This document shows positions 1-8,232 of a DNA stretch of 8,342 nt, piece by piece. A program made the translations under genes and the position numbers. Source of the DNA: a virus. Lineage: Duplodnaviria > Heunggongvirae > Uroviricota > Caudoviricetes. Positions within the stretch are counted from its first letter, which is position 1, and every line of letters starts with the position of its first letter. The stretch lies in the IMG/VR virus record IMGVR_UViG_2751185968_000009, one strand, 5' to 3'. Under the pieces are notes generated by a model that made no database searches, was not told where the DNA came from, and was given only the letters and a program-made list of their open reading frames with translations.

Positions 1-306
1 AAAGGTTCTCAGTATGTATCGCTGGCCTACACACAGCGGCTTAAGGAAGCCGGATTACTGGCATCAACAGGAAGTACAGGCGACTCGTATGACAACGCGA
101 TGGCGGAGAGCATCAATGGTCTTTACAAAGCGGAGGTAATACACCGTAAGAGCTGGAAAAACCGTGCAGAAGTGGAACTGGCCACACTCACGTGGGTGGA
201 CTGGTATAATAATCGACGATTGCTGGAAAGGCTGGGCCACATCCCTCCGGCAGAAGCAGAAAAAGCTTATTATGCTTCCATCGGAAACGATGATCTGGCA
301 GCCTGA
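1..306 (+). CDS. IS3-family (rve/DDE integrase-type) transposase, C-terminal fragment; 5-prime end lies outside the window
   Basis: Frame 1 is open from nt 1 to TGA at 304-306 and reads KGSQYVSLAYTQRLKEAGLLASTGSTGDSYDNAMAESINGLYKAEVIHRKSWKNRAEVELATLTWVDWYNNRRLLERLGHIPPAEAEKAYYASIGNDDLAA. The YDNAMAES...GLYKAE block is the conserved catalytic-Glu region at the C-terminus of IS3-family OrfB transposases. Exact IS name not determined. Confidence 0.8.
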   Translation, partial: KGSQYVSLAYTQRLKEAGLLASTGSTGDSYDNAMAESINGLYKAEVIHRKSWKNRAEVELATLTWVDWYNNRRLLERLGHIPPAEAEKAYYASIGNDDLAA

Positions 307-352
307 GTTCACAGATAAAACACTCTCCAGGAAACCCGGGGCGGTTCAGTAA
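1..352 (+). mobile_element. 3-prime part of an IS3-family insertion sequence; right terminal inverted repeat expected between about 307 and 400 but not mapped
   Basis: Transposase ORF ends at 306 and a phage gene starts at 401. The left end is outside the window, so the terminal inverted repeat cannot be defined by pairing. Confidence 0.45.
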
Positions 353-358
353 CTCATG

Positions 359-386
359 AGCCGCCTTTTGGGCGGCTTTGTTGTTT
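359..386 (+). terminator. Candidate rho-independent terminator between the transposase and J
   Basis: GCCGCC (360-365) pairs with GGCGGC (371-376) around a 5-nt loop TTTTG, followed by the T-rich run TTTGTTGTTT (377-386). Seen directly in the sequence. Confidence 0.4.
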
Positions 387-400
387 ATGGAGTGTGAGGA

Positions 401-3400
401 ATGGGTAAAGGAAGCAGTAAGGGGCATACCCCGCGCGAAGCGAAGGACAACCTGAAGTCCACGCAGCTGCTGAGTGTGATCGATGCCATCAGCGAAGGGC
501 CGGTTGAAGGTCCGGTGGATGGATTAAAAAGCGTGCTGCTGAACAGTACGCCGGTGCTGGACAGTGAGGGGAATACCAATATATCCGGCGTCACGGTGGT
601 GTTCCGGGCCGGTGAGCAGGAGCAGACACCGCCGGAGGGATTTGAATCCTCCGGCTCCGAGACGGTGCTGGGTACGGAAGTGAAGTACGACACGCCGATT
701 ACCCGGACCATCACGTCGGCAAACATCGACCGTCTGCGCTTTACCTTCGGTGTGCAGGCACTGGTGGAAACCACCTCAAAGGGGGACCGGAATCCGTCGG
801 AAGTCCGCCTGCTGGTTCAGATACAGCGTAATGGTGGCTGGGTGACGGAAAAAGACATCACCATTAAAGGCAAAACCACCTCACAGTATCTAGCATCGGT
901 GGTGGTGGGTAACCTGCCGCCGCGCCCGTTCAATATCCGGATGCGCAGGATGACGCCGGACAGCACCACAGACCAGCTGCAGAACAAAACGCTCTGGTCG
1001 TCATACACCGAAATCATCGATGTGAAACAGTGCTACCCGAACACGGCACTGGTCGGCGTACAGGTGGATTCGGAGCAGTTCGGCAGCCAGCAGGTGAGCC
1101 GTAATTATCATCTGCGCGGGCGTATTCTGCAGGTGCCGTCGAACTATAACCCGCAGACTCGGCAATACAGCGGTATCTGGGACGGAACGTTTAAGCCAGC
1201 ATACAGCAATAACATGGCCTGGTGTCTGTGGGATATGCTGACCCATCCACGCTACGGCATGGGGAAACGTCTTGGTGCGGCGGATGTGGACAAATGGGCG
1301 CTGTATGTCATCGGCCAGTACTGCGACCAGTCAGTGCCGGATGGCTTTGGTGGCACGGAGCCGCGCATCACCTGTAACGCTTACCTGACCACACAGCGTA
1401 AGGCGTGGGATGTGCTCAGTGATTTCTGTTCGGCGATGCGCTGTATGCCGGTATGGAACGGGCAGACGCTGACGTTCGTGCAGGACCGACCGTCGGATAA
1501 GGTGTGGACCTATAACCGCAGTAATGTGGTGATGCCGGATGATGGCGCGCCGTTCCGCTACAGCTTCAGCGCCCTGAAGGACCGCCATAATGCCGTTGAG
1601 GTGAACTGGATTGACCCGGATAACGGCTGGGAGACGGCGACAGAGCTTGTTGAAGATACGCAGGCCATTGCCCGTTACGGTCGTAACGTCACGAAGATGG
1701 ATGCCTTTGGCTGTACCAGCCGGGGGCAGGCACACCGCGCCGGGCTGTGGCTGATTAAAACGGAGCTGCTGGAAACGCAGACCGTGGACTTCAGCGTGGG
1801 TGCAGAAGGGCTTCGCCATGTACCGGGCGATGTCATTGAAATCTGTGATGATGACTATGCCGGTATCAGCATCGGCGGGCGCGTGCTGGCGGTGAACAGC
1901 CAGACGCGGACACTGACGCTCGACCGTGAAATCACGCTGCCATCCTCCGGCACCACGCTGATAAGCCTGGTTGACGGACAGGGGAATCCGGTCAGCGTGG
2001 AGGTCCAGTCCGTCACCGACGGCGTGAAGGTGAAAGTGAGCCGTGTTCCTGACGGCGTTGCCGAATACAGCGTGTGGGGGCTGAAGCTGCCGACGCTGCG
2101 CCAGCGCCTGTTCCGCTGCGTGAGTATCCGTGAGAACGATGGCGGCACGTATGCCATCACCGCCGTGCAGCATGTACCGGAAAAAGAAGCCATCGTGGAT
2201 AACGGGGCGCACTTTGACGCGACCAGAGCGGCACGGTGAATGGTGTCACGCCGCCAGCGGTGCAGCACCTGACTGCCGAAGTCACCGCAGACAGCGGGGA
2301 GTATCAGGTACTGGCCCGCTGGGACACGCCGAAGGTGGTGAAGGGCGTGAGCTTCCTGCTTCGCCTGACCGTGACAGCGGACGATGGCAGTGAGCGGCTG
2401 GTCAGCACGGCCCGGACGACGGAAACCACATACCGCTTCAGGCAGCTGGCGCTGGGGCGTTACATGTTGACGGTCCGGGCGGTAAATGCGTGGGGACAGC
2501 TGGGCGATCCGGCGTCGGTATCGTTCCGGATTGCCGCACCGGCAGCGCCGTCGCGGATTGAGCTGACGCCGGGCTATTTTCAGATAACCGCCACGCCGCA
2601 TCTTGCCGTTTATGACCCGACGGTACAGTTTGAGTTCTGGTTTTCGGAAAAGCGGATTACCGATATCAGGAAGGTTGAAACCACAGCGCGCTATCTTGGC
2701 ACGGGGCTGTACTGGATAGCCGCCAGTATCAATATCAAACCGGGCCATGATTATTATTTTTACGTTCGCAGTGTGAACACCGTTGGCAAATCGGCATTCG
2801 TGGAGGCTGTTGGTCAGCCGAGTGATGATGCATCCGGTTATCTGGATTTTTTCAAAGGCGAGATAGGGAAAACCCATCTGGCTCAGGAGCTGTGGACGCA
2901 GATTGATAACGGTCAGCTTGCGCCTGACCTGGCTGAAATCAGGACGTCCATTAAGGATGTCAGCAATGAAATCACGCAGACCGTCAATAAGAAACTGGAA
3001 GACCAGAGTGCGGCAATTCAGCAGATACAGAAGGTTCAGGTTGATACAAATAATAATCTGAACAGCATGTGGGCTGTGAAGCTGCAACAGATGAAGGACG
3101 GACGCCTTTATATTGCGGGTATCGGTGCCGGTATTGAGAATACGCCAGCAGGAATGCAGAGTCAGGTGCTGCTGGCGGCAGACAGGATTGCGATGATTAA
3201 TCCTGCGAATGGCAACACAAAGCCGATGTTTGTTGGTCAGGGCGATCAGATATTCATGAACGACGTGTTCCTGAAACGCCTGACGGCTCCCACCATTACC
3301 AGCGGCGGTAATCCTCCGGCATTTTCCCTGACACCGGACGGGCGGCTGACGGCGAAAAATGCCGATATTAGCGGTAACGTGAATGCGAACTCCGGGACGC

Positions 3401-3879
3401 TCAACAACGTCACGATTAACGAGAACTGTCGGGTTCTGGGAAAACTGTCCGCCAACCAGATTGAAGGCGATCTCGTTAAAACAGTGGGCAAAGCTTTCCC
3501 CCGGGACTCCCGTGCACCGGAGCGGTGGCCATCAGGGACCATTACCGTCAGGGTTTATGACGATCAGCCGTTTGACCGGCAAATTGTTATTCCGGCGGTG
3601 GCATTCAGTGGCGCTAAGCATGAGAGAGAGCATACTGATATTTACTCCTCATGCCGTCTGATAGTGCGGAAAAACGGTGCTGAAATTTATAACCGTACCG
3701 CGCTGGATAATACGCTGATTTACAGTGGCGTTATTGATATGCCTGCCGGTCACGGTCACATGACACTGGAGTTTTCGGTGTCAGCATGGCTGGTAAATAA
3801 CTGGTATCCCACAGCAAGTATCAGCGATTTGCTGGTTGTGGTGATGAAGAAAGCCACTACAGGCATCACGATTAGCTGA
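401..3879 (+). pseudogene. J: Tail tip / host-specificity protein J (lambda gpJ-like), interrupted by a frameshift near 2219-2223; present as two ORFs, 401..2239 and 2236..3879
   Basis: ORF 401..2239 (612 aa) begins MGKGSSKGHTPREAKDNLKSTQLLSVIDAISEGP and follows the lambda J N-terminal half as I recall it. ORF 2236..3879 (GTG start in the track) continues [36 protein letters not shown], the next part of J, in a different frame. GGAG at 389-392 sits about 9 nt upstream of ATG 401. Confidence 0.85.
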
Positions 3880-3897: not shown

Positions 3898-3925
3898 GGG
3901 CACCAGAAATGGTGCCTTTTTTATT
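3898..3925 (+). terminator. Rho-independent terminator downstream of J
   Basis: GGGCACC (3898-3904) pairs with GGTGCC(T) (3911-3917) around the loop AGAAAT, followed by TTTTTTATT; it begins 19 nt after the J stop at 3877-3879. Confidence 0.6.
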
Positions 3926-3946: not shown

Positions 3947-4546
3947 ATGCGTAAATTATGTGCTGTTATTCTGTCCGCAGTAGTCTGGCTGGTTGCCGCT
4001 GGTATGCCAGCGAGCGCAGCAGAGCATCAGTCCACACTAAGCGCCGGGTATCTTCAGACCCATACTGATATGCCAGGCAGCGATGATCTGAACGGGATTA
4101 ACGTGAAATACCGTTATGAGTTTACGGACACGCTGGGGCTGGTGACGTCATTCAGTTATGCCAATGCCAAAGATGAGCAAAAAACGCATTACAGCGATAC
4201 CCGCTGGCATGAAGATTCCGTGCGTAACCGCTGGTTCAGCGTGATGGCGGGGCCGTCTGTGCGCGTGAATGAATGGTTCAGCGCGTATGCGATGGCGGGT
4301 GTGACTTACAGTCGTGTGTCGACTTTTTCCGGGGATTATCTCCGTGTAACTGACAGCAAGGGGAAAACGCACGATGTGCTGACCGGAAGTGATGACGGTC
4401 GCCACAGCAACACGTCTCTGGCGTGGGGGGCTGGCGTGCAGTTTAACCCGACCGAATCCGTGGCCATTGATATTGCTTATGAAGGCTCCGGCAGTGGTGA
4501 CTGGCGTACCAACAGTTTCATCGTTGGTGTCGGCTATAAATTCTGA
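3947..4546 (+). CDS. lom: Lom, Ail/Lom-family outer-membrane beta-barrel protein (prophage moron)
   Basis: 199-aa ORF with a signal peptide (MRKLCAVILSAVVWLVAAGMPASA, then AEH after an AXA site) and the C-terminal GVGYKF typical of outer-membrane beta-barrels. Blocks such as NGINVKYRYEFTDTLGLVTSFSY and SVAIDIAYEGSGSGDWRT match lambda Lom as I recall it. RBS GAGAGG at 3936-3941. Confidence 0.92.
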   Translation: MRKLCAVILSAVVWLVAAGMPASAAEHQSTLSAGYLQTHTDMPGSDDLNGINVKYRYEFTDTLGLVTSFSYANAKDEQKTHYSDTRWHEDSVRNRWFSVMAGPSVRVNEWFSAYAMAGVTYSRVSTFSGDYLRVTDSKGKTHDVLTGSDDGRHSNTSLAWGAGVQFNPTESVAIDIAYEGSGSGDWRTNSFIVGVGYKF

Positions 4547-4572: not shown

Positions 4573-4600
4573 AGCCCGCCGGTTCAGGCGGGCTTTTTTG
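4573..4600 (+). terminator. Rho-independent terminator downstream of lom
   Basis: Perfect 8-bp stem AGCCCGCC (4573-4580) / GGCGGGCT (4587-4594), loop GGTTCA, then TTTTTT (4595-4600). Confidence 0.65.
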
Positions 4601-4610
4601 TGGGGGGAAT

Positions 4611-7259
4611 ATGGCAGTACTGATTTCAGGTGTACTGAAAGATGGTGCAGGTAAGCCGATACAAAACTGCACCATTCAGCTAAAGGCCAGGCGCAACAGC
4701 ACCACGGTGGTGGTGAACACAGTGGCCTCAGAAAATCCGGATGAAGCCGGGCGTTATACAATGGACGTCGAGTATGGTCAGTACAGCGTCAGTCTGTTGG
4801 TGGAGGGATTCCCGCCGTCACACGCCGGGATTATCACCGTATATGAGGACTCAAAGCCGGGCACACTGAATGATTTCCTCGGTGCAATGACGGAGGATGA
4901 TGTCCGGCCAGAGGCACTGCGCCGTTTTGAACTGATGGTGGAAGAGGTGGCGCGTAACGCGTCCGCAGTGGCACAGAACACGGCAGCCGCGAAGAAGTCA
5001 GCCAGCGATGCCCGCACATCAGCCCGTGAGGCGGCAACCCATGCGACTGATGCTGCAGGCTCAGCACGCGCAGCCAGCACGTCAGCCGGACAGGCCGCGT
5101 CGTCGGCTCAGTCAGCGTCTTCCAGCGCAGGAGCGGCATCAACAAAGGCCAGTGAAGCATCGAAAAGTGCTGCTGCTGCAGAGTCCTCAAAAAGCGCGGC
5201 AGCTACCAGTGCCAGTGCCGCGAAAACGTCAGAAACGAATGCGGCAGCGTCACAACAATCAGCAGCCACTTCTGCATCCACCGCGACCACGAAAGCGTCA
5301 GAAGCAGCCACTTCAGCACGGGATGCGTCGGCTTCAAAAGAGGCGGCAAAATCATCAGAAACGAACGCAGCCTCGAGCGCCAGCAGCGCAGCTTCCTCGG
5401 CAACGGCGGCAGCAAATTCTGCGAAGGCGGCAAAAACGTCCGAGACGAACGCCAGGTCTTCTGAAACGGCAGCGGGACAGAGCGCCTCAGCTGCGGCAGA
5501 CTCAAAAACAGCGGCTGCATTATCTGCCAGTGCCGCGTCAACAAGTGCCGGGCAGGCCTCAGCCAGTGCCACCGCCGCCGGAAAATCGGCAGAAAGTGCT
5601 GCATCGTCTGCTTCAACAGCCACAACGAAGGCTGGCGAAGCCGCTGTACAGGCCAGCGCAGCAGCGAGGTCTGCTTCCGCAGCGAAGACATCCGAGACGA
5701 ACGCGAAAGCGTCGGAAACCAGCGCAGAATCCTCAAAAACGGCTGCCGCATCGTCCGCCAGTTCGGCGGCGTCATCGGCATCATCTGCGTCTGCTTCAAA
5801 AGATGAGGCGACCAGACAGGCGTCAGCAGCAAAGGGCAGCGCCACGACGGCATCCACGAAGGCGACAGAGGCAGCTGGCAGTGCGACGGCGGCAGCTCAG
5901 AGCAAAAGTACGGCGGAATCCGCGGCAACGCGCGCTGAGACAGCGGCAAAACGGGCAGAGGATATTGCATCCGCCGTGGCGCTTGAGGATGCGAGCACGA
6001 CGAAAAAGGGGATAGTACAGCTCAGCAGTGCGACTAACAGCACTTCCGAGTCACTGGCGGCAACGCCAAAAGCCGTTAAGGCCGCGTATGAGCTGGCTAA
6101 CGGGAAATACACCGCACAGGATGCAACGACAGCACAGAAAGGGATAGTTCAGCTTAGCAACGCGACCAACAGCACATCTGAAATGCTGGCGGCAACGCCA
6201 AAGTCGGTAAAGGCAGCCTATGACCTTGCTAACGGGAAATATACTGCTCAGGACGCTACGACAGCACAAAAAGGAATTGTCCAGCTCAGTAGTGCAACCA
6301 ACAGCGCATCTGAAACGCTTGCCGCGACACCGAAAGCAGTGAAAGCAGCTAATGATAATGCGAATGGTCGGGTACCTTCTGCCCGTAAGGTGAATGGTAA
6401 GGCGCTTTCAGCGGATATAACACTGACGCCGAAAGATATTGGTACGCTTAACTCAACAACAATGTCATTCAGCGGTGGTGCTGGTTGGTTCAAATTAGCA
6501 ACGGTAACCATGCCACAGGCGAGTTCTGTTGTTTCAATTACGTTGATTGGTGGTGCGGGATTTAACGTGGGGTCACCTCAACAGGCAGGTATATCTGAAC
6601 TTGTTTTGCGTGCAGGTAATGGTAATCCGAAGGGGATTACTGGTGCTTTATGGCAGCGCACATCGACAGGGTTTACAAATTTTGCCTGGGTCAATACATC
6701 TGGTGATACTTACGATATTTACGTTGCAATCGGAAATTATGCGACTGGTGTAAATATTCAATGGGATTATACCAGTAATGCCAGCGTGACGATTCATACG
6801 TCACCAGCATATTCTGCTAATAAGCCGGAAGGGTTAACGGACGGTACAGTTTATTCACTCTATACGCCATCAGAGCAGTTTTATCCGCCTGGCGCACCAA
6901 TCCCGTGGCCATCAGATACCGTTCCGTCTGGCTATGCCCTGATGCAGGGGCAGACTTTTGACAAATCTGCATACCCGAAACTTGCAGCCGCTTATCCGTC
7001 AGGCGTGATCCCTGATATGCGTGGCTGGACGATTAAGGGCAAACCCGCCAGTGGTCGTGCCGTATTGTCTCAGGAACAGGACGGCATTAAATCGCACACC
7101 CACAGCGCCAGCGCATCCAGTACGGATTTGGGGACGAAAAACACATCGTCGTTTGATTACGGAACCAAATCCACGAATAACACCGGGGCGCATACGCACA
7201 GTCTGAGTGGCTCTACGGGGTCTGCCGGTGATCATACTCATGGTAATGGTATTCGTTGA
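4611..7259 (+). CDS. stf: Side tail fibre protein Stf (lambda Stf-like N-terminus, Ala/Ser-rich shaft, tail-collar motif); ends at an in-frame TGA that looks premature
   Basis: 882-aa ORF; the N-terminus [36 protein letters not shown]...[23 protein letters not shown] matches lambda Stf from memory. Contains the motif [48 protein letters not shown], typical of phage tail-collar domains. G-rich RBS at 4602-4607 before ATG 4611. Confidence 0.85.
4950..5990 (+). repeat. Low-complexity Ala/Ser/Thr-rich coding region within stf, with recurring AAKTSETNA-type motifs
   Basis: Stf residues about 115-460 are almost entirely A/S/T/K/E/Q. Motifs recur several times ([70 protein letters not shown]). The stop-poor GCN/TCN-rich DNA generates long spurious ORFs in other frames. 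Confidence 0.7.
5988..6383 (+). repeat. Three tandem in-frame 132-bp (44-aa) repeats within stf; third copy diverges in its 3-prime third
   Basis: The unit DA(S/T)T(T/A)(K/Q)KGIVQLS(S/N)ATNS(T/A)SE(S/M/T)LAATPK(A/S)VKAAY(E/D)LANGKYTAQ starts at 5988, 6120 and 6252. The KG codon pair sits at 6006-6011, 6138-6143 and 6270-6275, exactly 132 nt apart. Copies differ mainly at synonymous positions. Confidence 0.8.
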
Positions 7260-7586
7260 CCAGGAGGCGGCGGTTCTGCGTTAGCATTTTATGATGGCGG
7301 TGGGTTCACTTATGTCCAGGATTCACAGTATCAAGTAAGCCCGGGGACTTCTTCCCGTAGATCGTATTATCAACGTATTCAGACACAGTCAGCAGGTGCT
7401 CATACCCACTCGCTGTCTGGTACTGCAGCAAGTTCTGGCGCACATGCACATACTGTAGGTATTGGTGCGCATACGCACTCCGTTGCGATTGGTTCACATG
7501 GACACACCATCACCGTTAACGCTGCTGGTAACGCGGAAAACACCGTCAAAAACATCGCATTTAACTATATTGTGAGGCTTGCATAA
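7260..7586 (+). other. stf: In-frame continuation of stf beyond TGA 7257-7259, encoding the conserved tail-fibre C-terminus; no start codon of its own
   Basis: Codons 7260..7583 are open in the stf frame and read [108 protein letters not shown], ending at TAA 7584-7586. The last ~25 residues match the lambda Stf C-terminus as I recall it. No in-frame ATG/GTG/TTG with an RBS. Confidence 0.6.
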
Positions 7587-8170
7587 TGGCATTCAGAATG
7601 AGTGAACAAGCACGGACCATAAAAATTTATAATCTGCTGGCCGGAACTAATGAATTTATTGGTGAAGGTGACGCATATATTCCGCCTCATACAGGTCTGC
7701 CAGCAAACAGTACCGATATTGCACCACCAGATATTCCTGCTGGCTTTGTGGCTGTTTTCAACAGTGATGAGGCATCGTGGCATCTCGTTGAAGACCATCG
7801 GGGTAAAACGGTTTATGACGTAGCGTCAGGGGACGAGTTATTTATTTCTGAACTCGGTCCGTTACCGGAAAATGTTACCTGGTTATCGCCGGAAGGGGAG
7901 TTTCAGAAGTGGAACGGCACAGCCTGGGTGAAGGATACGGAAGCAGAAAAAATGTTCCGGATCCGGGAGGCGGAAGAAACAAAAAACAACCTGATGCAGG
8001 TAGCCAGTGAGCATATTGCGCCGCTTCAGGATGCTGCAGATCTGGAAATTGCAACGGAGGAAGAAACCTCATTGCTGGAAGCCTGGAAAAAGTATCGGGT
8101 GTTGCTGAACCGTGTTGATACATCAACTGCACCTGATATTGAGTGGCCTACGAACCCTGTCAGGGAGTAA
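7586..8170 (+). CDS. tfa: Tail fibre assembly protein Tfa (lambda Tfa-like chaperone)
   Basis: 194-aa [82 protein letters not shown]..., nearly residue-for-residue with lambda Tfa as I recall it. Its ATG (7586-7588) overlaps the TAA (7584-7586) of the stf frame as TAATG. Confidence 0.93.
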
Positions 8171-8184
8171 TCATTGGGATTATG

Positions 8185-8232
8185 CCGCAGCACGTCTTAA
8201 GCAAGAACGTGCTGCGGTTGGATGCTATTTTT
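8185..8232 (+). other. Perfect 11-bp inverted repeat with 11-nt spacer after tfa, followed by a T-tract; possible terminator or protein-binding palindrome
   Basis: CCGCAGCACGT (8185-8195) and ACGTGCTGCGG (8207-8217) are exact reverse complements; T6 run at 8227-8232 lies about 9 nt past the stem, which is atypical spacing for an intrinsic terminator. Confidence 0.35.

Follow-up and report, generated by a model that had tools for sequence, protein, structure and literature searches.

The J gene described here raises the question of how a tail-tip gene that is intact in its nearest relatives comes to lie in two reading frames: through a base lost in the strain itself, through a base lost from the sequence only, or as an arrangement from which a working protein is still made. 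The gene lies in the window, the whole 8,342-base stretch of DNA that was analysed, which is the tail-tip end of a lambdoid prophage and carries, in this order, the end of an IS3-family element, J, lom, stf, and tfa (Table 1). From position 349 to its end, the window is collinear with a prophage of Escherichia coli Ecol_AZ155 (NZ_CP019005.1; hereafter AZ155), with 99.96% identity over 7,994 nt and no rearrangement. The alignment contains one gap and two mismatches, the gap being a G at 2219/2220 within J. In AZ155, the corresponding genes are annotated as a tail assembly protein, a small hypothetical ORF, gpJ (3,480 nt), an Ail/Lom protein, a 991-aa side tail fibre, and a tail fibre assembly protein; the tail genes upstream are annotated as L, a C40 peptidase (K), and a tail assembly protein (I). 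Pfam scans of the ORFs in the window were consistent with this gene layout.

Table 1. Features of the window, with coordinates counted from its first base.
Feature	Coordinates	Strand	Evidence
IS3-family right end (IS629/IS1203-like)	1..348	+	Pfam rve_3/rve_2 on 1-306; matches to annotated transposases
Terminator-like hairpin between IS end and J start	358..378	+	Consensus scan; same sequence in intact relative (L001 4459-4479)
J 5' part, 612-aa ORF (J residues 1-606, ATRAAR, stop)	401..2239	+	Pfam FNIII-A_GpJ, Phage-tail_3
Lesion site: one G of a GG dinucleotide missing, codon Gly607 (GGC)	2219..2220	+	Alignment to AZ155 and TB354; base-by-base walk
J 3' part, -1 frame relative to 401, residues 613-1159	2218..3879	+	Pfam Ig_J, Ig_J_second, Phage_Tail_Tip, Ig_GpJ_C
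lom (Ail/Lom outer-membrane protein), intact	3947..4546	+	Pfam Ail_Lom, E = 1.5e-127; AZ155 annotation
stf, side tail fibre, cut to 882 aa by W883*	4611..7259	+	Comparison with AZ155 and E. coli records
stf remainder, untranslated, last 108 codons (distal fibre tip), still stop-free	7260..7586	+	Identical to AZ155; Phage_fiber repeat match
tfa, tail fibre assembly gene, intact	7586..8170	+	Pfam Caudo_TAP; AZ155 annotation

The two frames of J were found much as the original prediction had described them. The upstream frame begins at ATG 401, ends in ATRAAR, and is closed by TGA 2237-2239 after 612 amino acids. The downstream frame opens at 2218, directly after TGA 2215-2217, and runs to the stop at 3877-3879. 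Its extent to 3879 had been predicted correctly, but the figure of 547 codons had been counted from 2224, whereas it actually applies from GTG 2236, the first start codon of this frame; the resulting 547-aa ORF overlaps the stop of the upstream frame (GGTGA). When the missing G was restored, the two frames merged into one ORF of 1159 codons with 0 amino acid differences from WP_000515674.1, which bears out the claim that J is split by a single-nucleotide frameshift with both halves otherwise intact.

The deletion, which had been placed at about 2219-2223, was located to the GG at 2219/2220 by alignment to the intact J genes of AZ155 and TB354. It falls in the codon of Gly607 (lambda numbering), where GAC GGC GAC has become GAC GCG AC and, in the wider context, GACGGCGACC has become GACGCGACC. 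The intact reading across the site is GACGGCGAC, and the reading with the deletion is GACGCGAC. The next residue differs between the intact relatives (GGC GAC, Gly-Asp) and lambda (GGC GAA, Gly-Glu). As the intact relatives carry the Asp codon, this A/C difference from lambda is a natural polymorphism that lies outside the lesion. The single-base difference is real in the sequence as given and is no chance pattern. The span of J from 401 to 3879 is thus not one uninterrupted frame but is broken at 2219/2220, and because of this interruption the gene was filed as a J pseudogene rather than as a functional J.

The consequences of the break were examined at the level of protein domains. All six J domains scored above the Pfam cut-offs, in the order FNIII-A_GpJ, Phage-tail_3, Ig_J, Ig_J_second, Phage_Tail_Tip, and Ig_GpJ_C. 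FNIII-A_GpJ and Phage-tail_3 remain in the 612-aa product, and Ig_J begins directly after the break. The earlier statement that the 612-aa product lacks the C-terminal receptor-binding region was therefore correct, and by Pfam the product also lacks both Ig/FNIII domains and the tail-tip fibre domain. In lambda gpJ, the hub domains are followed by a long linker, FNIII-1, FNIII-2, a helical shaft, a straight fibre, and the receptor-binding domain (RBD); the tube is sealed by the FNIII domains, and its opening involves the linker (PMC11101478). Judged by this domain order, the truncated J would keep the hub and lose all that is needed for sealing the tube and for reaching and binding the receptor. 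From the structure, we infer that the deletion would abolish the function of J.

The distribution of the deletion was then surveyed among homologues. A 701-nt query around the site was compared with 5,426 complete E. coli genomes; J was found in 4,558 of them, at 13,914 places, the median genome having two. A second query, of 69 nt and with the site at its centre, matched the same genome set at 10,004 places (about 10,000 J copies). The deletion was present in none of the 4,495 E. coli records with a full-length match to this shorter query: all of them hold the extra base, and none is an exact match. A 40-mer spanning the deletion had no exact match in genome contigs and none in metagenome contigs. 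The 612-aa and 547-aa products were both absent from the gene-position collection, a look-up that may miss genes annotated as pseudogenes. The deletion is known from this single record.

Homologues naturally split at exactly this point into two genes had been named as the finding that would speak against a lesion. None was seen among the approximately 10,000 J copies in E. coli. The nearest J genes are annotated as single CDSs of 3,480 nt, and sequenced phages also carry a single J at this point, with the exception of PhiR63_1 (PV340573.1). The J of PhiR63_1 (L004 1502-4913) consists of two overlapping CDSs of 660 and 485 aa, with a small deletion that corresponds to about position 2345 of the window. 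It is the only split J that was seen, and it was rejected as a case of a natural split at this point, its deletion being a different one that lies about 125 nt downstream. Since PhiR63_1 was propagated, its J split may itself be a sequencing error in that record.

Besides the deletion, two other inactivating lesions were found in the same prophage. One is the IS element upstream of J. Its end, which encodes the C-terminus of a transposase (Pfam rve_3/rve_2 at 1-306) and closes with GGTTCA at 348, shares up to 99.1% identity with annotated IS3-family transposases; full-length matches stop at 348, and similarity to the AZ155 prophage begins exactly at 349. The junction at 348/349 lies 52 bp before the start of J and 14 bp past the stop of the small ORF that is present in AZ155. 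It was found in none of the 5,426 complete E. coli genomes, and a 40-mer across it was absent from genome and metagenome contigs. Because of the IS element, late transcription probably no longer reaches J-lom-stf-tfa.

The other lesion is a nonsense codon in stf, where TGG is replaced by TGA at 7257-7259 (mismatch at 7259; W883*). The intact protein has 991 aa and its gene ends at 7586; the last 108 residues are lost. This stop was found in none of the 720 complete E. coli records that hold the stretch, all of which have G rather than A at the position. A look-up with the 882-aa product, however, identified a draft contig, LPTF01000317.1 (GCA_001906265.1), that carries the same stf stop. The third point difference from AZ155, at 3594, is synonymous (CCG in the window versus CCA), and the draft again has G there; it differs from the window at one base only, 3609. 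As the stf stop and the G at 3594 are common to the window and an independent draft, the substitutions in the window are genuine lineage markers and not noise. The draft contig begins at window position 3058 and so does not reach the J deletion site; the sequence ahead of its start belongs to a multi-copy repeat, which a draft would probably have collapsed. The three point differences from AZ155 thus comprise one silent change and two knock-outs, both in the host-recognition proteins J and Stf.

Two features of the gene arrangement were observed alongside these lesions. Terminator-like hairpins lie at 358-378, 3898-3917, and 4573-4594, that is, before J, after J, and after lom, and bracket each of these genes of the module; in the intact relative, the hairpin corresponding to 358-378 lies downstream of the small extra ORF. 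This bracketing is consistent with moron-like insertion of lom and, in the intact relative, of the small ORF upstream of J. In addition, the 3' end of tfa (8005-8219) is directly repeated in the draft contig (L003 5997-6211) with 89% identity over 216 nt. The repeat sits beyond a reverse-strand gene for a SAM-dependent methyltransferase, and the second copy, a 106-aa Caudo_TAP fragment, is apparently the leftover of an alternative tail-fibre assembly cassette.

A frame change during expression would leave J functional in spite of the deletion. Since the second frame of J lies at -1 with respect to the first, a rescue would require a -1 shift between 2218 and 2236, and -1 is the direction used by the G/GT shift of lambda. 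Such a shift could come from programmed ribosomal frameshifting or from transcriptional slippage. The absence of a slippery heptamer, on which the original prediction had relied, was confirmed, as no X XXY YYZ motif occurs in 2100-2240. The 19-nt overlap of the two frames (2218-2236) contains no homopolymer of at least 4 nt, and the nearest such runs, A5 at 2181 and G4 at 2204, both lie upstream of the stop in the -1 frame. The RNA from 2205 to 2330 folded no better than shuffled sequences (z = -1.19; 24 of 200 shuffles were at least as stable) and thus gave no sign of a stimulatory structure. Homologues, moreover, are all single ORFs. With neither heptamer nor RNA structure, and with a two-frame layout that is not kept in homologues, the earlier judgement that programmed frameshifting is unlikely was upheld, and we regard restoration of full-length J by either route as having next to no probability. 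A conserved two-gene arrangement was rejected together with programmed recoding: the signals are missing and the homologues are unsplit.

It is also conceivable that the split J works as two pieces, with termination at TGA 2237-2239 coupled to re-initiation at GTG 2236, and with the hub and the fibre (613-1159) joining non-covalently. The stop and start codons do overlap (GGTGA), and the position of the break, in the linker immediately ahead of the first Ig/FNIII domain, leaves whole domains on either side. Phage T5 divides the equivalent functions among the separate proteins pb3, pb4, and pb5, which counts in favour of such a scheme. Against it, no recognisable Shine-Dalgarno sequence was found in the 20 nt before 2236, the arrangement occurs in no homologue, and the gene, being identical to the one-piece version, shows no sequence adaptation to a divided state. 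The loss of stf and the IS element upstream of J speak against it as well. In lambda, furthermore, it is the covalent linker between the hub and the FNIII domains that transmits the opening signal (PMC11101478). A working two-piece J is accordingly very unlikely, and that this prophage could still produce a non-covalently assembled J by way of GGTGA, in the manner of the separate proteins of T5, seems more improbable still. If it were true, the covalent hub-fibre link of lambda J would be dispensable.

The explanation that competes most directly with a real lesion is a sequencing or assembly artefact, in which the strain has an intact J and one G at 2219/2220 is missing from the consensus alone. 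The deletion is unique to this record, and the two halves are otherwise perfect, without a single amino acid difference after repair. The window also crosses an IS copy and the multi-copy part of J, the region where the draft contig begins, which we take to be a break at a short-read repeat boundary. That the window spans both the IS and the repeated part of J suggests a long-read assembly, for which 1-nt deletions are a typical residual error. Yet the deletion is the sole indel in 7,994 nt aligned to AZ155, no indel was found in 5,285 nt aligned to the draft contig (L003), and the window's homopolymer runs of 4-6 nt, 98 in number, are all unaffected. The lack of a second indel in the presence of 98 such runs argues against a generally indel-prone assembly, while a single isolated error is still compatible with it. 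Moreover, platform errors do not concentrate in 2-nt runs, an independent assembly bears out the remaining differences between the window and its nearest relative, and the prophage carries two further real-looking lesions. An artefact is thus possible and deserves to be taken seriously, although we think it rather unlikely.

The IS element upstream of J and the independently corroborated stf stop tilt the balance towards a real lesion, and we infer that the deletion is carried by the strain's own DNA and is no mere product of the assembly. The original prediction had offered a recent lesion as one of two alternatives, and the repaired protein, 100% identical to an intact homologue, agrees with a recent origin. 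One observation counts against simple decay: two knock-outs among three point differences are more than is usual for neutral drift. This could mean that selection in the host, rather than drift, led to the loss of J and Stf, given that both knock-outs affect adsorption proteins while lom and tfa are intact. However, three events are too few for a test, and after a polar IS insertion upstream of J the later mutations would be neutral. Neither lesion recurs in the 5,426 genomes, so there is no sign of parallel selection. Adaptive inactivation is in our view a highly improbable account.

We conclude that J has probably been inactivated by a very recent, lineage-private deletion in a decaying prophage. 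In this event, one G of the GG in the Gly607 codon would have been lost in the lineage, with a slip in replication or faulty repair as the simplest cause. Translation would depart from the J frame past Asp606 and end at 2237-2239, once the six out-of-frame residues ATRAAR had been added. The hub-forming domains would be retained in the product. Missing from it would be both FNIII/Ig domains, the helical shaft and the central straight fibre, as well as the receptor-binding domain, and the prophage would be unable by itself to make a host-recognising tail tip. The deletion would be one of three private lesions in the tail-fibre module, the others being the IS that ends 52 bp ahead of the J start and the W883* stop in stf. 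In the best reading, these three lesions are what is typically seen when a lambdoid prophage has been freed from selection and decays.

For annotation, the gene should be labelled as a J pseudogene, or corrected if the base proves to be an error. With J broken, stf truncated, and an IS upstream, the prophage is to be scored as adsorption-defective. A real lesion would be of use as a marker of the lineage, with three independent events in one 8-kb tail-fibre module and hardly any further change. Most E. coli genomes have two or more copies of J that are near-identical in this region, so the lesion can be complemented, or repaired by recombination, by another resident prophage; a "defective" prophage is not necessarily an immobile one (PMC2669165).

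Comparison with known systems places these findings in context. The closest relatives are the copies of WP_000515674.1, the gpJ of AZ155 and about 17 other complete genomes, which is 99.96% identical at the DNA level and 100% identical at the protein level once the G is restored. Unlike the window, they have an intact J, no IS upstream, and a full 991-aa stf. The phage lambda module has the same arrangement, with J located after the tail assembly gene I (by the AZ155 annotation) and before lom, stf, and tfa; in the window, the IS end replaces whatever lies upstream of 349. Lambda gpJ (PDB 8IYK, 8XCG, and related entries) is the product of the same gene with the same domain order, and the J of the window is near-identical to it over residues 1-835. 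The repaired protein aligned to the lambda gpJ chain 8iyk_J over residues 1-835 and 866-1158 (E = 0, 2172 bits). In its intact form, the J of the window has 1159 aa, compared with 1132 in lambda, and it is interrupted here at codon 607. The C-terminal third (about 3000-3879, residues 866-1159) has diverged from lambda, the protein being 27 residues longer overall, and its scores against the "A8 gpJ 713" chains 9wca exceed those against the lambda C-terminal chains 8xcj. On the basis of this sequence divergence, the intact form of this J may use a different receptor or a variant of LamB.

The -1 frameshift of lambda G/GT has the same direction and belongs to the same tail-gene operon, but the site in the window differs from it in having no heptamer, no stimulatory structure, and no conservation. 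A nearer parallel is the stf gene of lambda PaPa, which, compared with Ur-lambda, is split into two long ORFs by a single-base deletion. That frameshift affects a dispensable side fibre and leaves the phage viable, whereas the lesion in the window affects the essential tip protein J. More generally, lambdoid prophages of E. coli commonly carry frameshifts, IS insertions, and truncations, as in Sp1-Sp18 of O157 Sakai (PMC2669165). The broken J would thus be a case of ordinary lambdoid prophage decay, or possibly a sequencing error, and points to no new mechanism. The mix of lesions is the same as in Sp1-Sp18, here in another prophage of another strain, with lesions that are private to the lineage and very recent.
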